Assembly: GCA_026396175.1 (NCBI GenBank)
Contig: JAPLXG010000014.1
Coordinates: forward strand, 1-63,870
Direction: 5' to 3'
Source: Candidatus Moraniibacteriota bacterium
GTDB lineage: Bacteria; Patescibacteriota; Minisyncoccia; Moranbacterales; UBA2206
DNA: 63,870 bases
Shown: positions 3,098 to 58,802 of the stretch, piece by piece
Numbering within the stretch: the stretch's first letter is position 1
How the letters are laid out: every line of letters starts with the position of its first letter
Made by a program: the position numbers and the translations under genes
The notes under the pieces: model-generated
Told to the model about the DNA's origin: nothing
Databases searched by the model: none
Seen by the model: only the letters and a program-made list of their open reading frames with translations

Positions 3098-3120
3098 AGG
3101 AAATGAAAATAAAAAAATTA

Positions 3121-3166
3121 GTTATTTGCTTCGCGAACCCCGCCGCGGCGGGGACATACAAATATT
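3121..3166 (-). repeat. Family C element (ATTCGxATGTCCCC-hairpin-GGGGTTCGCGAAGCxAATAAC), oriented toward the hisS start
   Basis: Shared consensus with 6 other copies. Lies 23 nt upstream of the hisS ATG on the minus strand. Confidence 0.8.
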
Positions 3167-3196
3167 AGTATTTTTTGAAAAGATTATGCAAAAAAT

Positions 3197-3850: not shown

Positions 3851-3909
3851 GTTATTCGCTTCGCTGTTATTCGCTTTGCGAACCCCGCCGTGGTGGGGAC
3901 ATCCGAATT
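3851..3909 (-). repeat. Family C element (partly duplicated arm), oriented toward the lepB start
   Basis: GTTATTCGCTTCGCTGTTATTCGCTTTGCGAACCCCGCCGTGGTGGGGACATCCGAAT, 9 nt from the lepB ATG. Confidence 0.8.
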
Positions 3910-4065
3910 AGTGCTTTTTTAAACCTATATACGACCTGAACAGTTTTAAGCATAGCAGAAAATTATCCATTTGGCAAGGTCTATTTTTCCTTTCATAGAG
4001 CCATAATTTGACGACAACGGATTATCGGAGTATGATTAAATAAACTCTTTTACGCCCACTCAATA

Positions 4066-9999: not shown

Positions 10000-10545
10000 C
10001 TACAGCTTATGTATCTGCAAAAAATCCAACTCTACCGGTGTTTCGCGTCCAAAAATGGAAACCAACACCTTCACTCGTCCCTTCTCTTCATCTACTTCAT
10101 TAACCTTACCATCAAATTCCTTGAACGGTCCGTCGATAATCTTGACCACATCACCCACTTTCACGTCAATCTTATACTTCGGTTCGTCCACACCCATCCG
10201 CTTTTTGAGCATCTCAATTTCTTTCGGATCAACTGGAGTTGGAGTCGTGCCCAGACCAATAAAGCCAGTCACGTTTGGAGTATTTCGCACCACGTACCAA
10301 GAAGCATCCGTCACAATCATGTCAACGAGGACATAACCAGGATAGATGCGCTCTTCAATCACCGTGCGCTTTCCCGCTTTAATCTTAATTTTCTTTTCAA
10401 TCGGCACCATCACATCGAAGATAAATTCCTGCATATCCATCGATTCGATTCTTTGTTTCAAATTACGCGCCACGTTATCCTCGTAGCCGGAATAGGTATG
10501 CAGCACATACCATGATCTTCCGTGATGTTGTGATTGTTTTGCCAT
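10000..10545 (-). CDS. nusG: Transcription termination/antitermination factor NusG
   Basis: 181 aa. NGN domain (WYV..T.SG.E..V) and a C-terminal KOW (GD.V.I..GPF..F.G.V). Confidence 0.95.
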   Translation of the reverse strand: MAKQSQHHGRSWYVLHTYSGYEDNVARNLKQRIESMDMQEFIFDVMVPIEKKIKIKAGKRTVIEERIYPGYVLVDMIVTDASWYVVRNTPNVTGFIGLGTTPTPVDPKEIEMLKKRMGVDEPKYKIDVKVGDVVKIIDGPFKEFDGKVNEVDEEKGRVKVLVSIFGRETPVELDFLQIHKL

Positions 10546-10580
10546 TGTTTTGGGAAACTAAAAAATAATTAAAAATTTGT

Positions 10581-10766
10581 CTATTTCAGGATAAATGTTT
10601 TTAATACGTATTCGAAAATAAAGTCCAAACCGCCCAGAAAAAAGGATAAAACAATACTAATTCCAATCACTGTTAGGGTATAATTGATAGTTTGTTTTTT
10701 GGTAGGCCAGTTCACTTTCTGCAATTCCGACTTAGCTTCTTTCAAAAATTGGACGATTTTGTTCAT
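10581..10766 (-). CDS. secE: Preprotein translocase subunit SecE
   Basis: 61 aa. E..KV.WPT motif followed by a single TM segment. Syntenic with nusG. Confidence 0.9.
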   Translation of the reverse strand: MNKIVQFLKEAKSELQKVNWPTKKQTINYTLTVIGISIVLSFFLGGLDFIFEYVLKTFILK

Positions 10767-10782
10767 TGTTTTTTAGTCTTTC

Positions 10783-10904
10783 TTTACTAATTACTAATCT
10801 TGTACGAATATACTAATCCTCACTAAATAAGCTTCTCTTAACATAAGGACAAACTAGCAAAAATACAAATTCGTATATTGGTATTTTATTCGTAATTAGT
10901 AAAG
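10783..10904. mobile_element. MITE-like element, family F
   Basis: TIR CTTTACTAATTACTAATCTTGTACGAATATACTAAT / ATTCGTATATTGG..CGTAATTAGTAAAG, directly upstream of secE. Confidence 0.75.
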
Positions 10905-11029
10905 ATTCCCTTTTTTAAAAGCCCTTTGGGGCTTTTTTGTAATATATGCAGGATATATCATTTTTGATTTTTTGTCAAATGGGGTATAATAGCTAAATCA
11001 CTATACTGCTGAAAATATCGACCCTCTTG

Positions 11030-11209
11030 TGTCATTCCCGCACCCGTTTTCACGAGTATAAACTCTGGCGGGAATCCAGGTTCCACTAGTTATAAATTAC
11101 AAACAATCGAGTTATAAATCCTCTAACTTCTTATTACCAACCAATAAATTCTGTTTTTCTTTTTCTTGAAACCTGAGGTGCCTGGATCCCCGACTGCTCG
11201 GGGATGACA
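11030..11209. mobile_element. MITE-like element related to family A (TIR TGTCATTCCCGC / CGGGGATGACA)
   Basis: Each arm is itself a hairpin (CCCGC..GCGGGAATCCAGG; CCTGGATCCCCGACTGCTCGGGG). Confidence 0.65.
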
Positions 11210-11241
11210 TAAAAAAAATAGCCTATTTAAAAAAATATTTA

Positions 11242-11673
11242 ATGCCTCTTGACCTATTTTCAAAAACTTCCCTACCAGACGTTTTGCCGGATGATCTGCA
11301 AAAGGTGATTTTGGAGTTGAAAAAATCGCGTGACCAAAAAGAATGCTTGGAAAAAGTCTATGCGCTTTTGACTGCCAAGTACCACGGCGAACGACTGAAA
11401 ACTTACACGAAATTATTTCAATTATTTAGAAAAGATATTTTTTGGCTTTGGAATCGAATTGGTTACTTGCATTGCACTAACATTAATTATGTCGCAAGGA
11501 TTTTATTAGTAAAAAGCGGCTTTTTCGAAGAATCCGACATCTGCTTGAAGTGGACTTTAGTTTGGTATGTTTCGCCGCATCAATATTTGGAAGTGGAGGT
11601 TGGCGACCAATGGATCGTTGTCGACATTTGGGCCAATGCTTTTGGAATTGAGTTTGGTGATTATGCGCATTGA
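11242..11673 (+). CDS. Transglutaminase-like (Cys-His-Asp) domain protein
   Basis: 143 aa. GYLHCTN (Cys), SPHQYLEV (His) and WIVVDIW (Asp) are spaced as in the transglutaminase-like core. Confidence 0.5.
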   Translation: MPLDLFSKTSLPDVLPDDLQKVILELKKSRDQKECLEKVYALLTAKYHGERLKTYTKLFQLFRKDIFWLWNRIGYLHCTNINYVARILLVKSGFFEESDICLKWTLVWYVSPHQYLEVEVGDQWIVVDIWANAFGIEFGDYAH

Positions 11674-11835
11674 AAAATATTGTTTATTTTTTCCCTAAAA
11701 AAAATCAATGCTCCCAAACACCTTGAAAGGTGGGGAGCATTTTTTAATAGCACGCATAGGGTTCTATGAGCCAAATGGAATCTGTTCAAAAAAAGAACAA
11801 TCTGGGTTATCGCAACTGCGATACCTGCCCCATCC

Positions 11836-11949
11836 TCAAACATACTTGGCAACTTTTACAATTTTACCCGTTTTGCATTTTGGACAATGTATATCTGTCC
11901 GTTCAACATTTCGGGTTCCTGAGTCTATTACAAAAAAACTTTCCTCCAT
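11836..11949 (-). CDS. Possible 37-aa peptide with CPKC motif (not in the ORF track)
   Basis: Hand-translated as MEESFFVIDSGTRNVERTDIHCPKCKTGKIVKVAKYV. Weak AAGAGG upstream. Follows two SD-led genes on the same strand. Confidence 0.25.
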   Translation of the reverse strand: MEESFFVIDSGTRNVERTDIHCPKCKTGKIVKVAKYV

Positions 11950-11966
11950 AAGCACCTCTTTGTGTC

Positions 11967-12221
11967 CTATAAAAGTTTTTTTTGGCAACGACATTGCGAT
12001 GGTGGCAAGTATCTCACTTTGCCATTGTCTTTATTAAAAAGACACCACACAACGTCTACCTCTTTCCCGTTTATGGTAGCGGGACCAACACCCACAACAA
12101 CGCCAATATCTCCACCTCTGAAAACTATTTGCCTGGGCGCATAACCACGCGCTTTACAGGCCTCTCTCGAGGGATCAATCCAAACCCATGAGCAACGATT
12201 TTCAAAAAGCACTTTTTTCAT
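11967..12221 (-). CDS. Hypothetical 84-aa protein, SD-led
   Basis: The track ORF was trimmed to the ATG (MKKVLFENR) preceded by AAGGAGG. No recognisable domain. Confidence 0.55.
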   Translation of the reverse strand: MKKVLFENRCSWVWIDPSREACKARGYAPRQIVFRGGDIGVVVGVGPATINGKEVDVVWCLFNKDNGKVRYLPPSQCRCQKKLL

Positions 12222-12262
12222 AGTGTCTGATGCCTCCTTGTTGAAACTATGCACGACACAAT

Positions 12263-12556
12263 TTATCCTTCGGCTTTTTCCGAGTGCGGAGAAAGAATCT
12301 TCTCGAGAACCTTATCCGCCAAAGACTGTTTAATTCTGGCGGAATCAACGGTTTCCCTGATTCTTCGCAATGCCACAACGACTTCCTTGAGATTTTCTTC
12401 AGGGATAGAAGTGGCCAACATTTTTTTAATTTGACCAAGCATCCGCTCTTTCAACAAGGCGCTGGATATTGAAGGCCTATTAGGCTCAGCCAGCAATAAA
12501 GCGTCCTCCCCGATCTCCCACAAGAGAACCTCGTCAGCTCGCATTCTTTTAATCAT
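12263..12556 (-). CDS. Hypothetical 97-aa protein, SD-led
   Basis: ATG preceded by GAGGAGGGACT, the same 5' module as at 6873. No recognisable domain. Confidence 0.55.
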   Translation of the reverse strand: MIKRMRADEVLLWEIGEDALLLAEPNRPSISSALLKERMLGQIKKMLATSIPEENLKEVVVALRRIRETVDSARIKQSLADKVLEKILSPHSEKAEG

Positions 12557-12656
12557 AGTCCCTCCTCATATTAAATTGTTTGCCAATAGCCTCATTGCCA
12601 CTGGATAAGTAATTCAAGCAGGAATCGGCTTTTTTGTCAACCGTAAAACCCCGAGC

Positions 12657-12685
12657 TTGACAAACCTCCACATCAGTGCTACAAT
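12657..12685 (+). promoter_or_regulatory. Sigma70-like promoter of the helicase gene (TTGACA-17-TACAAT)
   Basis: Consensus -35 box, 17-nt spacer and a 5/6 match at -10. Confidence 0.65.
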
Positions 12686-12730
12686 TGACTTTTATGTTAA
12701 TACTTTCGTTTGTTTTCGCTTGCAGAGGTA

Positions 12731-12764
12731 TCTAAACATAAAACATTTAATTTTTATGTTTAGA
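12731..12764 (+). promoter_or_regulatory. 13-bp stem hairpin in the helicase 5' UTR
   Basis: TCTAAACATAAAA-CATTTAAT-TTTTATGTTTAGA, 34 nt upstream of the ATG. Confidence 0.5.
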
Positions 12765-12797
12765 GCCTTTCTTTTTTGAAAGTCTCTCGAAATCTAC

Positions 12798-14021
12798 ATG
12801 TTTCAAAAACGCTATAGTCGCGCGACTAGTACTTCTTCGCGCAGAAATTTTTCCCGTCCCGGCGGACGGAGTTCCGGCCCTAATCGTGGCGGACAAAGAG
12901 GCTTTCGTGGAAGTTTCATTAGTATCGACAAATTCATCAACAAAGCCGCGCCAGTCACTGACGTGCCGGCTGAGGCCTATGTGCCGGAAACGCCTTTTGC
13001 TGATCTCAAAATCAATAGTCGCCTAAAAACGATCATTGCGCAGAGGGGGTATAAATTGCCCACAGCTATTCAAGATAAAACTATCCCCCACATTCTTCTG
13101 GGAAAAGATTTGATTGGCCTGGCTAACACCGGCACCGGAAAAACCGCCGCATTTCTCATTCCGATGATCAATAAAATGCTCACCAATCATGATGAAAAAC
13201 TTTTGGTTGTCGTGCCGACTCGTGAGTTGGCAACGCAAATCCAAGAAGAATTTATTTCTCTCTCACGCGGTCTCAATCTTTTTTCCGTCGTGATTATCGG
13301 TGGCGCCAATATGCACCGTCAAATTTCGCAATTGCGCTCTCGCCCCAATCTGGTTGTCGGCACACCCGGACGCCTCAAGGATTTAGTCCAACAAAAGAAA
13401 CTAGATCTTTCCCGTTTTTCCAATGTTGTGCTTGATGAAGCTGATCAAATGCTGGATATGGGTTTTATTGGCGACATTAAATTCTTGTTGTCCTTTTTGA
13501 CGCAGAAAAAACAAACACTGTTTTTCTCCGCAACATTACCGCCAGCCATTGAACATTTGATCAAAGATTTTCTCGTGGATCCGGTGCGAATTTCAATCCG
13601 CAATCAAGCGACACCGGCCCAGATTGATCAAGATGTGGTGCGTGTCAGACAAGGCGAAGACAAGATTGAGGTTTTGCATAACTTACTCAGTAAAGCGGCT
13701 TTTCAAAAAGTGCTTATCTTTGCTCGCACAAAAAGTAGCACAGAAAAACTATCTAAAATTCTTGGTGTCCGTGGCTTCAAGGCGGAATCAATTCACGGCA
13801 ACAAGTCCCACGGCAAACGCCAACAGGCGCTCAAAATGTTCAAAGAAGACCGCGTGGAAATTCTGGTGGCCACTGACATTGCCGCTCGCGGACTGGATAT
13901 TCCCAATGTTAGTCATGTGATCAATTTTGATGTTCCGGCAACCTATGAGGATTACATCCACCGCATCGGCCGCACTGGCCGCGCGGATAAAACCGGCATT
14001 GCTTTGACTTTTGTTTCGTAG
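12798..14021 (+). CDS. DEAD-box ATP-dependent RNA helicase
   Basis: 407 aa with AQTGTGKT-like NTGTGKTAAF, DEAD (VLDEADQM), SAT and HRIGRTGR motifs. Arg/Gly-rich N-terminus. Confidence 0.95.
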   Translation: MFQKRYSRATSTSSRRNFSRPGGRSSGPNRGGQRGFRGSFISIDKFINKAAPVTDVPAEAYVPETPFADLKINSRLKTIIAQRGYKLPTAIQDKTIPHILLGKDLIGLANTGTGKTAAFLIPMINKMLTNHDEKLLVVVPTRELATQIQEEFISLSRGLNLFSVVIIGGANMHRQISQLRSRPNLVVGTPGRLKDLVQQKKLDLSRFSNVVLDEADQMLDMGFIGDIKFLLSFLTQKKQTLFFSATLPPAIEHLIKDFLVDPVRISIRNQATPAQIDQDVVRVRQGEDKIEVLHNLLSKAAFQKVLIFARTKSSTEKLSKILGVRGFKAESIHGNKSHGKRQQALKMFKEDRVEILVATDIAARGLDIPNVSHVINFDVPATYEDYIHRIGRTGRADKTGIALTFVS

Positions 14022-52720: not shown

Positions 52721-52806
52721 ATCATTTTTAAATAATTTCTAATGCTTAATTTTTAAACATTAAAAATTTGGCTTTATTTATAAAAATTAAAAATTACAAA
52801 ATTAAA

Positions 52807-52848
52807 GTTATTCGCTTCGCGAACCCCGCCGCAGCGGGGACATCCGAA
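52807..52848 (-). repeat. Family C element, second tandem copy upstream of rsmH
   Basis: GTTATTCGCTTCGCGAACCCCGCCGCAGCGGGGACATCCGAA. Confidence 0.85.
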
Positions 52849-52862
52849 AATTAAGAGTTCTC

Positions 52863-53303: not shown

Positions 53304-53434
53304 TCTCTACGAATTACGAAGTCTCTACGAATTACGAATCTGTACGAATATACGAATAAAATTCAAGCAATACATAACGATAGTCGCAATTAAACCCACA
53401 TTAGTATATTCGTACAGATTCGTAGTTCGTATAG
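53304..53434. mobile_element. MITE-like element, family F, directly upstream of mraZ
   Basis: CTCTACGAATTACGAATCTGTACGAATATACGAAT ... TATATTCGTACAGATTCGTAGTTCGTATAG. Confidence 0.8.
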
Positions 53435-53553
53435 TATTCCCCCACTCTGCTCCACTACTATTGACTACAAATCTATTTTACCCCACTAGCTCGCACTCGT
53501 CAACACATTTCTCGTAAACTAAAATTGCCCAACCTAAGCCTTTTTGTAAAAAG

Positions 53554-53574
53554 TTATCCACAGGATGTGGACAG
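53554..53574. promoter_or_regulatory. Inverted pair of DnaA-box-like 9-mers (TTATCCACA gga TGTGGACAG)
   Basis: One perfect and one 7/9 box in palindromic arrangement, preceded by the same AAAAG as at 42161. Confidence 0.4.
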
Positions 53575-53587
53575 AAATCAACAATTT

Positions 53588-53616
53588 AAAAACCACCCAC
53601 GGGTGGTTTTCGTTTT
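53588..53616 (-). terminator. Intrinsic terminator at the end of the three-gene island
   Basis: AAAACCACCC-ACG-GGTGGTTTT with T-runs on both strands. Confidence 0.7.
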
Positions 53617-53633
53617 TAGTATTATTTTAGTTG

Positions 53634-54374
53634 CTACGATTTAGAATATTGCCTCTTGTAAGCTTTAATAATTTTATCAAGCAGATCTTTCGGTTTGGCC
53701 TCATATTTTCTAAAACTATTGATATTTTCCCGATTAAAATGTAATTGCCCTTCGCCTTCGTTTCCTCGGTGTTGTCCCTTGGAATAATATCTATTGTTCG
53801 CTACATCCTTGGAAGCAAAAACCCAATATTTAATTACGTCTCGCCAAACAGCCACCCAAACAAAAACATCACTATGTCCCGGCTTTATTTGTTGGAAATT
53901 CATATCAAATGATTTTTTTGAATTCCAAGCGAGAGCCTTGATAAAAAGTGGCTCATCACTTTTGGCATCAACCGCCCTGGAAGCTTTTACTTCTATCCTG
54001 ATATGCTTCTTCTTATGCTTATAAAGGAAATCATATTCATTATCGAAACCCGGGCATTCTTTTTTTGTCGGTTTTTGTATCTCAGGAGCAATGGCGTGAA
54101 TATGAGACTGAGCCCAAGTGATGCCAAATGCTGTTGGCGATCCATATTTTTCATAAATATGCAGATATTCATTTCTCGCCAAATATTCCTCACGAATTGC
54201 CAAATAATCGTCCAGGGTTATCTTTTTCAGTCCAAATAAATTCGAAATGATATATTCATACTTATTAAAAGGATAAACCGACATCAATTCACTAAGCTTA
54301 ATCCTAAGCTTTTCCCTATTACTGGTTGGCAATGCCGCAACCAATTCTTCCAAATTTTCCGTTAGTATTTCCAT
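53634..54374 (-). CDS. Putative PD-(D/E)xK restriction endonuclease partner of the adjacent methyltransferase
   Basis: 246 aa. The candidate catalytic motif is D (NEYDF).. E-V-K (IRIEVKAS). Lies 3 nt downstream of the MTase stop. No confident family match by eye. Confidence 0.5.
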   Translation of the reverse strand: MEILTENLEELVAALPTSNREKLRIKLSELMSVYPFNKYEYIISNLFGLKKITLDDYLAIREEYLARNEYLHIYEKYGSPTAFGITWAQSHIHAIAPEIQKPTKKECPGFDNEYDFLYKHKKKHIRIEVKASRAVDAKSDEPLFIKALAWNSKKSFDMNFQQIKPGHSDVFVWVAVWRDVIKYWVFASKDVANNRYYSKGQHRGNEGEGQLHFNRENINSFRKYEAKPKDLLDKIIKAYKRQYSKS

Positions 54375-54377
54375 AAA

Positions 54378-56351
54378 TTATTTGTTAAATTCATTAATAT
54401 AATCTTTCTCTTTTGATGATAGCGTAAATTTATCCATGATATAATTATCCAATTTCATAAAATTACCCTCATTATTCATTGTCCCATCGACAAGTTCGAT
54501 AATTTCAGAAAAGATTTCTCCATTCCAAAGTGGCAATGGCAGTTGTTCAATATGACTTCGCAAGATTTTTATGCTTGAAAACTTTTTTTGAAATATAAAT
54601 TGATACAAAGAAGAATTAAACAAGGCGGCAATTACTTTTATTGGATAATTTGAGATCTTAGGAATAACAATATTAGCACTGTTCAAAGTTAGCTGCTGCT
54701 TATCATCATAAGCAAAAACCAAATATTTTGAAATGAATCGATAAATTAGTTTTTCTTTTGCACGATACTTTCCCGTCGGAGCTACTTGTTGAAATTTTTC
54801 CGGCACAAATTGAATGTAGCTCGAAGGCTTATCTAATATGAACTTTTCAACGTCTTTCCCTTTGTAAATAGGCTCAAATCCGTCTTTTGGCTCATCTGCA
54901 ATAAATTCTTTGTTATTTCCAGTAACAATTCCCAATGCCCAATCAGCCTTATTTTCCAAAGTTGTATGCTTCGCTGAATATATTTTACTAATTATTTCAG
55001 CGTCGAATTCACTTGCGTGAATATCGAAAACCAAATCTTGATTCTGGAGCCATCTTGTTTGCTCAATACTATAACTCTTGTTTTCTTTGCAAATCACTAT
55101 TCTACCATTATTCACCTCACTCTTTTTGAAATCCAACCTAATGACAGGAGTAAAAACATTTTTGAAAACTCGATTAAGATAGGTTATCTTTTTAATTTGA
55201 GCATTTTTTAAAATAATTCCTCGTATATCTTTATGCGTTTTTACATTTAAAATTGACTCTGGTAAAATAAACGAGCTTATTCCGCCATCACAAAGCAAAT
55301 CGAGACTTTTTTTGAGAAAATATGAGAAAGACTCCAGGGATGTTATCGTGGGGTAGGTTTTTTTCAGCCTCCCACTATCCTCTTTTGAAAAATGCACTCC
55401 CCACGGCGGATTCGTGGCAATAACGTCAAAATTTCTAATATTTTCATCATTTAAGCTAAATAAATCATAGTTGCCAATGTCGAAAAGTGTGTTTTTGCAA
55501 ACAATATTTGGAGCGAAATCTCTGCCTTTGAATTTTATTAAAAGATTAAGTCGAGCAATCCTGACAGCAATCTCATCAAAATCAACACCATAAATATTTT
55601 CGGGATTTTCCACAACATCAGAAAAAGCTAGTAAAAACTGTCCTGTCCCACAGCAAGGATCTAGAACTTTTGAATCTCTTTTCGCATAATCAGCTACTAT
55701 TTCGTCAACTATATTCGATGGCGTGTAATATGATCCGCTCTGAGACTTTTTTCCTTCAAGCAAAAGGGATTGATATAGAAATCCGAGAACATCCCGTTGT
55801 TTTGGAATATTACAATCAAGCAGAAAAGAAAACTCTTCTTTTATTTTTCCCTCATCTATTTCTAAAATCCAAGATATAATTTCTTCTTTAATTTGTTTGT
55901 TCGTAAAAGACAAATCCTTTTTCTGGACAACATCTTGAATGCTAACGCTTAATAACACCCCCTCTTTTTTGAGCAAGTTCAAACTAATAAGTAAAAGCGC
56001 CGGAAACAATTCTATGTTATTACTTTTTATAAAATCAACTATAAAATTAAGTTCGTCAAAACTATATCTGTCCTTTGCATACTCGTCAGGCACAAAAGTT
56101 TTATCAGCTTTCGCCTTGTTGGCACGTCTGTTTAGTTTTTCCAAATCGCCACTTAAAATTTTTGATTTAATATCCTCGACATCTTTTTTGTGAAAAAAAT
56201 GCTTCTTATCTTCAAATGTTTGCAAGTGGCCACACTTAACCCAATTTCTAACAGTTGCTGTTGAAATTCCCAAAAAAGTAGCCGCGCTTTCTAGATTTAG
56301 CACTGCTTCATTATTATTGATTATTAAATTTTTAGCGAAACCATTAGCCAT
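54378..56351 (-). CDS. N6-adenine DNA methyltransferase (gamma class, Eco57I/TaqI-like) with an N-terminal excisionase/MerR-type HTH
   Basis: Motif I VLDPCCGTGQFLL and motif IV ATNPPWG. N-terminal LESAATFLGISTATVRNWVKCGHL. Long C-terminal target-recognition region. The start was set at ATG 56351 (the track starts at an upstream TTG). Confidence 0.85.
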   Translation of the reverse strand: MANGFAKNLIINNNEAVLNLESAATFLGISTATVRNWVKCGHLQTFEDKKHFFHKKDVEDIKSKILSGDLEKLNRRANKAKADKTFVPDEYAKDRYSFDELNFIVDFIKSNNIELFPALLLISLNLLKKEGVLLSVSIQDVVQKKDLSFTNKQIKEEIISWILEIDEGKIKEEFSFLLDCNIPKQRDVLGFLYQSLLLEGKKSQSGSYYTPSNIVDEIVADYAKRDSKVLDPCCGTGQFLLAFSDVVENPENIYGVDFDEIAVRIARLNLLIKFKGRDFAPNIVCKNTLFDIGNYDLFSLNDENIRNFDVIATNPPWGVHFSKEDSGRLKKTYPTITSLESFSYFLKKSLDLLCDGGISSFILPESILNVKTHKDIRGIILKNAQIKKITYLNRVFKNVFTPVIRLDFKKSEVNNGRIVICKENKSYSIEQTRWLQNQDLVFDIHASEFDAEIISKIYSAKHTTLENKADWALGIVTGNNKEFIADEPKDGFEPIYKGKDVEKFILDKPSSYIQFVPEKFQQVAPTGKYRAKEKLIYRFISKYLVFAYDDKQQLTLNSANIVIPKISNYPIKVIAALFNSSLYQFIFQKKFSSIKILRSHIEQLPLPLWNGEIFSEIIELVDGTMNNEGNFMKLDNYIMDKFTLSSKEKDYINEFNK

Positions 56352-56379
56352 AACTCTGTTCTTAAAAAAACAAAACAAA

Positions 56380-57801
56380 TTACGTGATATTTCCGTTTTT
56401 AAACTTTTCTACTATATCGTCTACGATTTCATCATTTATACTAAAAAAATCAAATATTTCAAATAGCGGTCTAGTAAATTCCTTGACTAAATTGGCAAGA
56501 TCTTCTTCTATTTGCGCCATAGAAGTAACAATAGCAACGGCACTCTCATTTTCATCAGTCTTTCTTTCGCGAACAAATCTTTGTCCGGAGGCGCTAATTA
56601 TTCTTCCTTTCAACCCAGCATGCTTAATCTCAATAGAAAATTCCTGCATTCTGTCGACTCCAAGATTTTTATATAAATTAGCAACATACATAAGCGATTC
56701 AGCTATTCGCACAATTCTTGTGTTAAAAAATATATAGCCTGGCCTTCTCTGATCTTCAAATAAACTTTTCAGTAAATAAAATGAACCGTCTTGCTTTATA
56801 GCCCAATAGTCATAAGAAATCTGCTCTTTTTCTGTTTCAAAAATATCCTGCTTCTTAATCGAAAGCTCGGCATGAATACCAGTATTGTCTGGTTTTGGTT
56901 TATATTCTTCCACAGCATCTATGAATACACCTATCGGCCAGCCAAAAGTATTTATTTGCGAAGTTCTTGCAGCATCTTTCAATTCGTTTTTGCCCTTACT
57001 TAAAAAATGATTAGTAAGATATGATTTAACCTCCATAGAAGTTTTGATTCCAAGATTTGAAAGACCTGCTTCTGCAACTTTTCTGTGAATGGAAAACCAA
57101 TCTTTGTTATTTGAATGTGAAATAATAATTCTTGATTTTATGGTATCTAGACTTTTTTTGTTTGCCTCCAATATTAAAGGCACCTCAACATCAGCAAGCC
57201 CAGATCTACCTTTTTCTTTGACAAGATCCCATAAACTTTCACAGCTATTCAATATATTGGAAATTGCACCTGATAATATTCTCGGCTCTCCTTCGCTATT
57301 TTTATTCTTATACACATATTTTGTATCTTGAATTGCCCAGGCATTTCCCAAAACAGTCCTAAGCTGAATTTCGCAACGCATCTTCATTTCCTCGTCTCCA
57401 AAATTAATAACTTTTGAAAAATTAAAATGATACGCCCTATAATTTCCTTCTTTTTTATCTCCTATAACATCCAAATACTTTTGCTTAAGTTCACCCTCTA
57501 ATAAATCATAAATTTTTTCTCTATCACTACTGCAATGGCAAGTAATTCGAACTCCTGCAATATCTTTTATATCGAGAATGCTTTTATATTTCCTATATTT
57601 TTCAGTATCATTGTCTATGTGTGCAAGAATTGAGCTGATATTCTTTATATCATTTTGCAATCGTTGTTCTACCTCATGTATATCAACAACGTCTTTTTTT
57701 AAATTCCTTAGCTCATTTAAAAAATCATAAACTTCCAATTGAAACGATTTCAAGAAGGGTTTGTATTTTTCATAATCTAAAATTAATTGTTCCCTATTCA
57801 T
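56380..57801 (-). CDS. RelA/SpoT-domain (small alarmone synthetase / toxSAS-like) nucleotidyltransferase fused to an uncharacterised ~280-aa C-terminal domain
   Basis: DIAGVRITC, YRAYHFNF and CEIQLRTVLGNAWA match the RelA_SpoT synthetase core (DxxGxR, Y..H, ExQxRT..WA). No hydrolase or TGS domain. I recognise nothing in the C-terminal half. Confidence 0.8.
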   Translation of the reverse strand: MNREQLILDYEKYKPFLKSFQLEVYDFLNELRNLKKDVVDIHEVEQRLQNDIKNISSILAHIDNDTEKYRKYKSILDIKDIAGVRITCHCSSDREKIYDLLEGELKQKYLDVIGDKKEGNYRAYHFNFSKVINFGDEEMKMRCEIQLRTVLGNAWAIQDTKYVYKNKNSEGEPRILSGAISNILNSCESLWDLVKEKGRSGLADVEVPLILEANKKSLDTIKSRIIISHSNNKDWFSIHRKVAEAGLSNLGIKTSMEVKSYLTNHFLSKGKNELKDAARTSQINTFGWPIGVFIDAVEEYKPKPDNTGIHAELSIKKQDIFETEKEQISYDYWAIKQDGSFYLLKSLFEDQRRPGYIFFNTRIVRIAESLMYVANLYKNLGVDRMQEFSIEIKHAGLKGRIISASGQRFVRERKTDENESAVAIVTSMAQIEEDLANLVKEFTRPLFEIFDFFSINDEIVDDIVEKFKNGNIT

Positions 57802-57836
57802 GTTGGTTGTTATTTTTTGGTGATAATCATAATGAC

Positions 57837-57865
57837 ATTATACCACTACTCTATCTTTTCGTCAA
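57837..57865 (-). promoter_or_regulatory. Sigma70 promoter of the island (TTGACG-17-TATAAT)
   Basis: Read on the minus strand, about 35 nt upstream of the RelA/SpoT-like ATG. Confidence 0.65.
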
Positions 57866-57963
57866 ATTTCCATTGATTTTTATACCTCCAGCGACTAATG
57901 CTTCATATTTCCCATTATACCACCGAACAAACAACAACTCAATAAGCCTTTCGAAATTTCCCC

Positions 57964-57992
57964 TTGCGTTAAATTTCTAAAAACTGTATAAT
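57964..57992 (+). promoter_or_regulatory. Sigma70 promoter of the 58029 gene (TTGCGT-17-TATAAT)
   Basis: Perfect -10 box and 17-nt spacer. Confidence 0.6.
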
Positions 57993-58028
57993 TATTTCGT
58001 AAAATAAAAATACTAAACCAAAACAAAG

Positions 58029-58802
58029 ATGGAAGAAAAAAATACTAATGACGCTAATAAAAACGCGGAAAAAATTCAGGCGCTTCGCGATATGATTTCC
58101 ACCGCTGAGACGACTCTGCAAGGCGCGAAATCGATGCTTTTGCAATTGGAAGGCAAGAAAAAAGCCGGTCGCCGCAGAAAGACAGAAGACGCGGACGAGA
58201 ATGAAAAAGTGATCGAGGGAACTTTTGATGGCCAGATTATGTTGGGAACCGACGGCAAGCAATATCCCGTCCCCGCTAACTATGCTTCCAAATCAAAACT
58301 GGTCAAGGGCGATATGATGAAGCTGTCAATTACTTCGGACGGCTCTTTTATCTATAAACAAATCGGGCCGGTCGTCCGCAAGATGGCCATCGGCACAGTC
58401 AACCAAGATACGGATGGCAATTATTTTGTCGTAGCTGATGGCAAAGCCTATCGAGTACTCCTGGCTTCCATTACATACTTCAAAGTCGAGCCGGGCGATG
58501 AAGTGACACTGGTCACTCCACGCGACATCGATTCCGAATGGGGCGCGATTGAAAATTTGTTGCAAAAATCACGCGAGAAAAAAGAACTGCCAAGAAAAGA
58601 TGCCGACCAGGATATCGGCGGATTCAGAAAAATTGACGGCATCTTCAACGAAAAACCGGCGCGCGATGAAACAGCCGCGCCAGCCGCTCCCGCTCCAGAA
58701 AAAGAAGTAGCATCAACCAGCGATAATACTTCCGTCATTGATGAATGGATGCCTAACTTGGATGAACTAAGAAAAGAATTGGAAAATAAATCCCAAGAAT
58801 AA
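58029..58802 (+). CDS. Conserved-looking hypothetical protein (coiled-coil N-terminus, beta-rich core, acidic tail)
   Basis: 257 aa, GC and codon style like the core genes. No domain recognised. Confidence 0.65.
   Translation: MEEKNTNDANKNAEKIQALRDMISTAETTLQGAKSMLLQLEGKKKAGRRRKTEDADENEKVIEGTFDGQIMLGTDGKQYPVPANYASKSKLVKGDMMKLSITSDGSFIYKQIGPVVRKMAIGTVNQDTDGNYFVVADGKAYRVLLASITYFKVEPGDEVTLVTPRDIDSEWGAIENLLQKSREKKELPRKDADQDIGGFRKIDGIFNEKPARDETAAPAAPAPEKEVASTSDNTSVIDEWMPNLDELRKELENKSQE

Follow-up and report, generated by a model that had tools for sequence, protein, structure and literature searches.

The DNA analysed here is the forward strand of contig JAPLXG010000014.1 (positions 1 to 63,870; GenBank assembly GCA_026396175.1) from Candidatus Moraniibacteriota bacterium, and we refer to this whole 63,870-nucleotide stretch as the window. 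Our subject is an AT-rich island within it. The island encodes a 473-amino-acid (473-aa) protein in which a small alarmone synthetase (SAS) domain is joined to a C-terminal domain (CTD), a predicted DNA methyltransferase (MTase), and a predicted restriction endonuclease (REase). A preliminary description, made from the sequence alone, had proposed that the three genes might form a composite defence system headed by a toxSAS-type protein.

Open reading frame (ORF) calls placed the three genes on the minus strand, densely packed and at the coordinates given before. The SAS-CTD gene (56380..57801) encodes the putative effector-plus-regulator fusion of 473 aa. After a gap of 28 nt comes the MTase gene (54378..56351), recognized by its domain matches, which encodes 657 aa from an ATG at 56351. 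A TTG at 56378 is an alternative start that would give 666 aa, and the ATG is conserved with a related locus, L090, described below. The REase gene (53634..54374; 246 aa), recognized with PADLOC, follows after a further 3 nt.

The best promoter-like match in the region lies upstream of the SAS-CTD gene, as had been noted. It is a putative sigma-70-like promoter on the minus strand (57837..57865), TTGACG-17-TATAAT with a TG extension, and matches 11 of 12 consensus positions. Promoter-like matches overall were not enriched (23 found versus 20 expected). Another promoter-like site on the minus strand, TTGAGT-17-TATAAT with a TG extension, lies at 57914..57942 and matches 10 of 12 positions. These two tandem sites (57837-57942) are about 77 bp apart, share the extended -10 sequence TGGTATAAT, and could be dual promoters for an operon. 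At the far end of the island, the hairpin that had been described as a terminator was found at 53589..53610. It has a 9-bp GC-rich stem (AAAACCACCCACGGGTGGTTTT) followed by a run of T, and is the likely operon terminator. The 28-nt gap between the SAS-CTD and MTase genes contains no terminator, and there is no promoter-like site with at least 9 of 12 matches in the 750 bp upstream of the MTase start. From the short gap, the lack of a terminator in it, and the lack of a good MTase promoter, we infer that the three genes are probably cotranscribed.

The block had been judged AT-rich by eye, and computed base composition bore this out. Its GC content is 0.331, compared with a window mean of 0.412 (standard deviation, 0.024), which makes it the fourth lowest of 598 equal-sized segments. 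GC content at third codon positions also differs, being 0.26-0.34 in the block and 0.38-0.55 in the flanking genes. A second argument for foreign origin had been that the block lacks the miniature inverted-repeat transposable elements (MITEs) said to saturate the rest of the window. The block is indeed free of repeats. However, repeats make up 5.7% of the window, which is not saturation. The argument is weak because 12% of equal-sized segments also lack repeats and hardly any of the block is intergenic.

Two repeats lie outside the block, on its mraZ side. A palindromic MITE-like repeat (53306-53434) sits just upstream of mraZ, was flagged by self-BLAST as repeated within the window, and is absent from a relative in which the island's site is empty. 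An Rfam MIR4380 match at 53317-53440 was rejected as an RNA gene; both strands matched, as expected of a palindromic repeat. A family of 48-nt GC-rich hairpin repeats (…CGCGAACCCCGCCGCGGCGGGGACAT…) occurs at 52806-52853, 3120-3167, and 3865-3912, with one copy between rsmH and mraZ.

Insertion site and the restriction-modification pair

We defined relatives as loci with homologues of the conserved 257-aa gene that flanks the island (58029-58802 in the window), and mapped the window's genes onto them. The 257-aa gene has no Pfam family, and in every relative it keeps its synteny with gtrA and dnaX. In one relative, L102, mraZ lies directly beside it, with 104 bp between the conserved flanks. 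Window positions 53440-53580 align to L102 8690-8830, and positions 57963-58078 align to L102 8935-9050. Measured against this empty site, the island is 4382 bp long (53581..57962). Therefore, the block is a horizontally acquired insert, and the direct junction of mraZ with the 257-aa gene that the preliminary description had pictured does exist.

Other relatives carry different cargo at the same position. In L103 the site holds a MITE copy, and in L101 (1675-2161) it holds a small mscL-like gene that was identified by eye from the sequence. L100 (899-2052) has a DpnI-family endonuclease with a fragment of a D12 MTase, and L104 (1032-3419) has a HARE-HTH/sigma-70-r4 protein with a 425-aa ORF of unknown kind. 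L090 and L091 have the window's MTase and REase genes plus a 211-aa ORF and no SAS gene, and the window itself has the SAS gene together with the MTase and REase genes. The mraZ/257-aa interval is a defence-gene integration hotspot with interchangeable cargo.

Comparison with L090 showed how the two occupied sites differ. Window positions 57962..56371 (1592 bp), containing the promoter and the 473-aa ORF, stand in place of 178 bp just upstream of the MTase start in L090. Conversely, L090 has 650 extra bp after the REase gene. Its 211-aa ORF (L090 7756-8391), which has no Pfam match and is absent from the window, lies there between the REase gene and a terminal hairpin; this hairpin closes the L090/L091 island and is the same one as in the window. 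The 211-aa ORF may be another accessory defence gene. A homology between the SAS gene promoter and the L090 MTase promoter was considered and rejected. Their best local alignment, with 22 identities in 30 positions around TTGACGAAAA, scored 23, no better than shuffled sequences (mean, 19.9; maximum, 34).

The restriction-modification (R-M) pair is 83% identical at the nucleotide level between the window and L090, similar to the flanking genes, and the L090 pair is also AT-rich (GC, 0.331 versus 0.419). Therefore, the acquisition, which had been called recent, was recent only in part, because the R-M pair is shared with the L090 site at this flank-like identity.

Both members of the pair are recognizable, in agreement with the earlier domain calls. 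The MTase matched Pfam N6_Mtase (4.6e-27), TaqI_C (4e-24), Eco57I (6.7e-21), and the helix-turn-helix (HTH) family HTH_17 (2.5e-5), and its translation contains catalytic motifs I (DPCCGTGQF) and IV (NPPW). It also matched the PADLOC model MTase_II PDLC03348 nearly end to end (1.3e-121), and its relatives in the Protein Data Bank (PDB) are CamA, M.TaqI, HsdM, and BsaXI. These matches identify it as a predicted Type II N6-adenine DNA methyltransferase of the gamma class that begins with an HTH and has a TaqI-like specificity domain at its C terminus. The REase matched the PADLOC model REase_II PDLC03414 near end to end (2.1e-58). Its family has 3765 homologues, called "hypothetical" in public sources, and no solved relative was found by sequence. 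With D115 and E128 invariant and K130 nearly invariant, the family has residues consistent with a PD-(D/E)xK core, which suggests a PD-(D/E)xK-like Type II restriction endonuclease.

L090/L091 have the pair at the window's insertion site but lack the SAS gene, and their REase is 93% identical to that of the window. In L092 and L093 the pair is found alone in unrelated contexts. The REase gene always follows the MTase gene in L090, L092, and L093. The R-M pair is an ordinary, autonomous Type II module that moves as a two-gene unit. Inspection by eye of the sequence preceding the MTase gene in the window, L090, L092, and L093 revealed no conserved operator for the MTase HTH.

The 473-aa protein and its C-terminal domain

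The 473-aa protein consists of an SAS N terminus, a long helical linker, and a CTD of about 240 aa. Its full-length homologues are 37-59% identical to it, and a full-length AlphaFold2 (AF2) model had a mean predicted local distance difference test score (pLDDT) of 88 and a predicted template modelling score (pTM) of 0.54. Pfam, Foldseek, and profile searches all assigned residues 1-200 (57202..57801, minus strand) to the SAS, or RelA/SpoT synthetase, fold. The domain matched Pfam RelA_SpoT (7.9e-13). In Foldseek searches it was closest to RelP/RelQ (3.5e-10; TMt, 0.73-0.79), with CapRel (7ztb) at 5e-6. A profile of the family searched against PDB gave 2e-17 for RelP/RelQ and just 4e-3 for CapRel.

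Synthetase domains of RelA/SpoT homologues (RSH) have conserved ATP/Mg and acceptor motifs, DxxGxR, YRxxH, and EIQxRT. The corresponding motifs in the window protein are DIAGVR (80-85), YRAYH (121-125), and EIQLRT (144-149). Residues R47, K53, D80, R85, Y121, H125, E144, and Q146 are invariant among 54 homologues. This conservation fits an active pyrophosphokinase with intact catalytic motifs.

The protein differs from the known kinds of small synthetase. Housekeeping RelQ/YjbM and RelP/YwaC are single-domain proteins of about 200-230 aa, whereas the window protein has an extra domain and scored 49 bits against the 320-bit cut-off of the NCBIfam YjbM equivalog. Two-gene toxSAS modules (FaRel, PhRel, and others) need an adjacent small antitoxin gene, but there is none beside the window SAS gene: positions 57802-58028 contain no plausible ORF for one, and the downstream gene is the MTase gene. 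PANGU, a two-gene system of a nucleoid protein and a toxSAS, was set aside because no equivalent partner gene lies beside the window SAS gene. PADLOC, which recognized the MTase and REase with its Type II models, gave only a weak match here, to PDC-S33 (32 bits, 1.7e-8). This match joined residues 26-156 to profile positions 50-175 of 349 (126 positions) and lay within the SAS domain, with none of the CTD.

The two closest homologues (58-59% identity; L003 9345-11640 and L096 5911-9499) each have a 251- to 253-aa ORF without a Pfam match 1-7 nt downstream. After this ORF comes a large, variable protein, with Mrr_cat in L003 and with SEC-C and DUF4238 in L096. L007 (10568-11422) likewise has a DUF4238 gene, about 1 kb downstream of its SAS-CTD homologue.

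The CTD with its leading helix spans residues 230-473 (56383..57114, minus strand). We modelled it separately because Foldseek with the full-length model matched the SAS domain only. The resulting model was of very high confidence (pLDDT, 94.4; pTM, 0.92). The CTD had no Pfam, NCBIfam, or PADLOC match. Foldseek found nothing significant in PDB (best E value, 0.013; TM, 0.26) or in BFVD. Weak matches to AdoMetDC, spermine synthase, and TBP-like folds (TM, 0.2-0.3) were treated as leads only.

An exhaustive search with the CTD alone recovered a family of about 750 clusters at 50% identity, in which the domain is nearly always C-terminal. Members have GWP, DxW, and RxxE motifs behind a variable N-terminal effector, and the window protein fits this pattern. 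A scan of species genomes found at least 533 stretches that encode a relative, in many bacterial phyla and in Methanoperedens. To describe the N-terminal partners, we used Pfam on 87 CTD representatives, among which TIR-type families can overlap on one protein. The partners were TIR_2 (25 of 87), SEFIR (17), TIR (10), RelA_SpoT (5), a ParA/CbiA-like P-loop domain (4), Schlafen AlbA_2 (3), a Ser/Thr kinase domain (Pkinase; 2), and HipA, GGDEF, and HTH (1 each). Some representatives had weak matches to nucleoside deoxyribosyltransferase-like domains. The effector in front of the CTD is swapped from one family member to the next, and this constant domain is paired with known immune or toxin effectors of at least four classes. 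A literature search for the architecture of the 473-aa protein found no description of it. The effector-swapping CTD family, for which we found no published account and which the preliminary description had not noticed, is the new element here.

Proteins consisting of the CTD alone (about 245 aa) also occur, in L051, L055, and L068 (9968-10717) and as P0241, P0243, P0257, and others. We looked for split two-gene versions, with a standalone CTD gene and an upstream effector gene, and the results were uninformative or resembled frameshifts.

Mean pairwise identity within the family was 49% for the CTD and 50% for the catalytic core. Conservation of the CTD to the same degree as the core favours a conserved cue or partner over a variable phage protein. 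If the CTD is a sensor, its high conservation would imply a conserved trigger, such as a host factor, a metabolite, or a nucleic acid, and this would be a new type of input for single-protein abortive-infection systems.

These properties raise the possibility that the CTD is a generic ligand-sensing regulator and that the 473-aa protein serves stress physiology as a regulated (p)ppGpp synthetase, lying beside an R-M pair by chance. The SAS domain is indeed closest to RelP/RelQ and far from CapRel. GGDEF, Ser/Thr kinase, HTH, and ParA-like partners are classical signalling outputs, several CTD loci lie amid housekeeping genes, and the CTD is conserved as a ligand-binding domain would be. However, TIR dominates the partners, and Schlafen and HipA are also present; all of these are toxin or immune effectors. 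The SAS gene is accessory, being absent at this site from the closest relatives and patchy across phyla, and the insert to which it belongs is AT-rich and occupies a restriction hotspot. Temperate phages, plasmids, and R-M operons also carry homologues (see below), and the score against the YjbM equivalog is far under its cut-off. We regard a role in stress physiology alone as unlikely.

Linkage to restriction-modification and proposed function of the island

CTD genes were operonic with R-M genes in 6 of about 76 CTD loci, including the window (about 8%), and in 3 of about 13 loci of the SAS-CTD subfamily. In L015, L017, L039, and L026, the CTD gene is nested codirectionally in a Type I hsdM/hsdS/hsdR operon, and the proteins have three different N-terminal types. 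In L097, a 473-aa SAS-CTD protein 52% identical to that of the window heads a Type I operon (hsdM, PIN_12, hsdS, Trypsin_2, and hsdR), with a gap of 42 nt. A Bsp6I-type Type II R-M system lies about 4 kb from the CTD gene in L098. Therefore, linkage of CTD genes to R-M is recurrent yet facultative. The preliminary description had known of no system in which a toxSAS-type gene heads an R-M operon. This arrangement recurs in L097, but the idea had been anticipated by guilt-by-embedding candidates. In the published screen from which the PDC candidates in PADLOC derive, genes lying inside operons of Type I R-M, BREX, and DISARM were for the most part defence systems in their own right. Within the L097 operon (10538-13408), the PIN_12 and Trypsin_2-like genes are themselves embedded among hsdM, hsdS, and hsdR.

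Defence genes were found among the neighbours of CTD loci, namely those of MADS, Gabija-like, Avs4, DISARM (DrmD), AbiE (AbiEi), SIR2-Ago, and BREX (BrxH) systems. Distant Schlafen-CTD members occur on temperate Burkholderia phages (phi1026b gp78 and phiE125 gp67), two genes from a RelE-like toxin gene. Others are plasmid borne, for example on Deinococcus pDrdVI beside a small serine recombinase. The phi1026b gp78 product (L094 2056-3450), which is annotated as an "ATP-binding protein," is an AlbA_2-CTD fusion encoded at the end of the genome, and it is probably a prophage-encoded defence moron.

The composite system proposed for the three genes would make the toxSAS, the MTase, and the nuclease parts of one obligate machine. 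Tight codirectional packing, one strong promoter, one terminal hairpin, and uniformly low GC fit such a machine, and further contigs of this strain (L005 and L006) carry an identical trio. However, the R-M pair occurs without the SAS gene in L090, L092, and L093, and SAS-CTD homologues are solitary among housekeeping genes in L001, L007, and L008. No neighbouring family is common to more than 5 of 72 non-redundant CTD loci. Across the loci compared, the window's REase family accompanied a homologue of the 473-aa protein in contigs of the window's strain and in no other organism's homologue locus, and the window MTase gave distant N6_Mtase matches only across CTD loci. Furthermore, both enzymes fit standard Type II models. 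Therefore, the trio is not one conserved unit. These data on separability largely refute an obligate three-component system, which we now regard as very improbable.

We consider it reasonably probable that the insert instead combines two separable defence modules, a Type II R-M pair and a stand-alone effector-plus-regulator abortive-infection gene that is CapRel-like in its logic, probably in one operon. In this model, a single transcript would start at the 57865 promoter and end at the 53589-53610 hairpin, and the R-M pair would be the first line of defence. The CTD would keep the SAS effector off until it sensed a cue linked to infection. The released enzyme would then make toxic alarmones, either (p)ppGpp or (pp)pApp, or would pyrophosphorylate tRNA. 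The resulting arrest of growth or translation would abort the infection if restriction failed. The toxicity of the SAS domain and the role of the CTD as a sensor or regulator are predictions from sequence.

Several points weigh against this two-module model. Its defence function rests on domain logic and genomic context, and many CTD loci (L001 and L008, for example) lie among housekeeping genes. The GGDEF, kinase, HTH, and ParA-like partners would equally fit a general signalling domain. The CTD is conserved, unlike the fast-evolving phage-protein sensors of CapRel and pSlfn5, so that a direct sensor of a phage protein is not the obvious model. The SAS domain is far nearer to housekeeping RelP/RelQ than to CapRel, and toxicity is not assured. 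The pTM of the full-length model leaves the geometry between the domains uncertain. Finally, our PADLOC comparison of near and far neighbours used family counts only and is qualitative, not a statistic.

The R-M linkage could also mean that the two modules cooperate. A precedent for coupling is PrrC, which EcoprrI keeps silent and a T4 anti-restriction peptide activates (PMC1484252, PMC2610378). Similarly, the adjacent N6-adenine MTase or R-M complex might silence the SAS-CTD protein or be monitored by it, and the protein would fire when a phage anti-restriction factor disabled restriction. On this view the trio would work together as a unit with two layers, even though each part is able to exist by itself. 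The operonic loci counted above fit such coupling, and their genes are closely spaced, with intervals of 28 nt in the window, 42 nt in L097, 5 nt in L026, and both 42 and 10 nt in L039, and an overlap of 4 nt in L017. PF02384 (N6_Mtase) is present in the MTase of the window and in all four loci scanned (L039 shows hsdS and hsdR only). The strong conservation of the CTD is expected of a domain that binds a conserved host partner, and the window SAS gene sits between the sole good promoter and the MTase gene. However, adjacent R-M genes are missing from more than 90% of CTD loci, and where present they are of differing kinds (Type II gamma-MTase, HindI-like Type I, and EcoEI-like Type I). PrrC is nearly always embedded in R-M operons, whereas the CTD family rarely is, and embedding is a general property of independent defence genes. 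We consider coupling of this kind unlikely, though worth keeping in mind.

A broader proposal goes further. The CTD could be an undescribed, widespread, and hyper-promiscuous regulatory domain of Bacteria and Archaea, with a fold not in PDB, through which TIR, toxSAS, Schlafen, HipA, and kinase effectors answer to a single conserved cue. Its repeated occurrence inside N6-adenine R-M operons would then reflect a guard mechanism. It would sense the failure or inhibition of restriction, or a conserved by-product, and trigger abortive infection. This is speculative, and we think it improbable as a whole.

Comparison with known systems

The SAS-CTD module resembles CapRel (CapRel-SJ46, PDB 7ZTB). 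In both, one polypeptide has an N-terminal RelA/SpoT-fold effector and a C-terminal regulatory region, with no separate antitoxin gene, and both are likely to be autoinhibited effectors that are released when infection is sensed. However, the C-terminal parts are unrelated. The CapRel pseudo-zinc-finger antitoxin/sensor was not found in the window CTD, which matched nothing in PDB at E < 0.01, and 7ztb was absent among the CTD matches listed. The window CTD is about 240 aa, is common to TIR, Schlafen, HipA, and kinase effectors, and is not hypervariable. The SAS domain of the window protein resembles that of CapRel (7ztb) in fold, and its profile match to CapRel is far weaker than that to RelP/RelQ. 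We do not read the 473-aa protein as a CapRel family member.

Fusions of Schlafen domains to sensors (pSlfn) also defend against phage, and those with an Ig-like sensor class have been tested (Nat Microbiol 2026, PMC13056530). Here, too, one family is fused to many partners, and AlbA_2/Schlafen-CTD relatives exist (P0070, P0079, and phi1026b gp78). The difference is that in the CTD family it is the effector that varies, in front of a constant CTD. The pSlfn partner classes include a "TBP-like" class, at 1.5% (PMC13056530). The CTD had weak TBP-like Foldseek matches, and no test linked that class, or the unannotated partner classes, to the CTD.

PrrC/EcoprrI, the "rlo" genes, and the guilt-by-embedding PDC candidates share with the window a gene for a latent toxic effector that is nested in or heads an R-M operon. 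PrrC differs in being an ABC-ATPase joined to an anticodon nuclease (ACNase); the window protein has no such domains and no homology to it. Furthermore, the linkage of PrrC to Type I R-M is near-obligate, compared with the roughly 8% of CTD loci that are operonic with R-M genes.

The R-M pair itself resembles ordinary Type II systems, with a gamma-class N6-adenine MTase like M.TaqI or CamA and a PD-(D/E)xK REase, as its matches to the PADLOC Type II models indicate. It departs from them in that its REase belongs to a family annotated just as "hypothetical" and without a solved relative by sequence. The site is a clean natural series (empty, R-M only, and SAS plus R-M) for layered defence in a Patescibacteria genome. 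The R-M pair is routine. What is new is the CTD family, a probable variation on the theme of single-protein effector-sensor abortive infection that is stacked here on an ordinary Type II R-M system.

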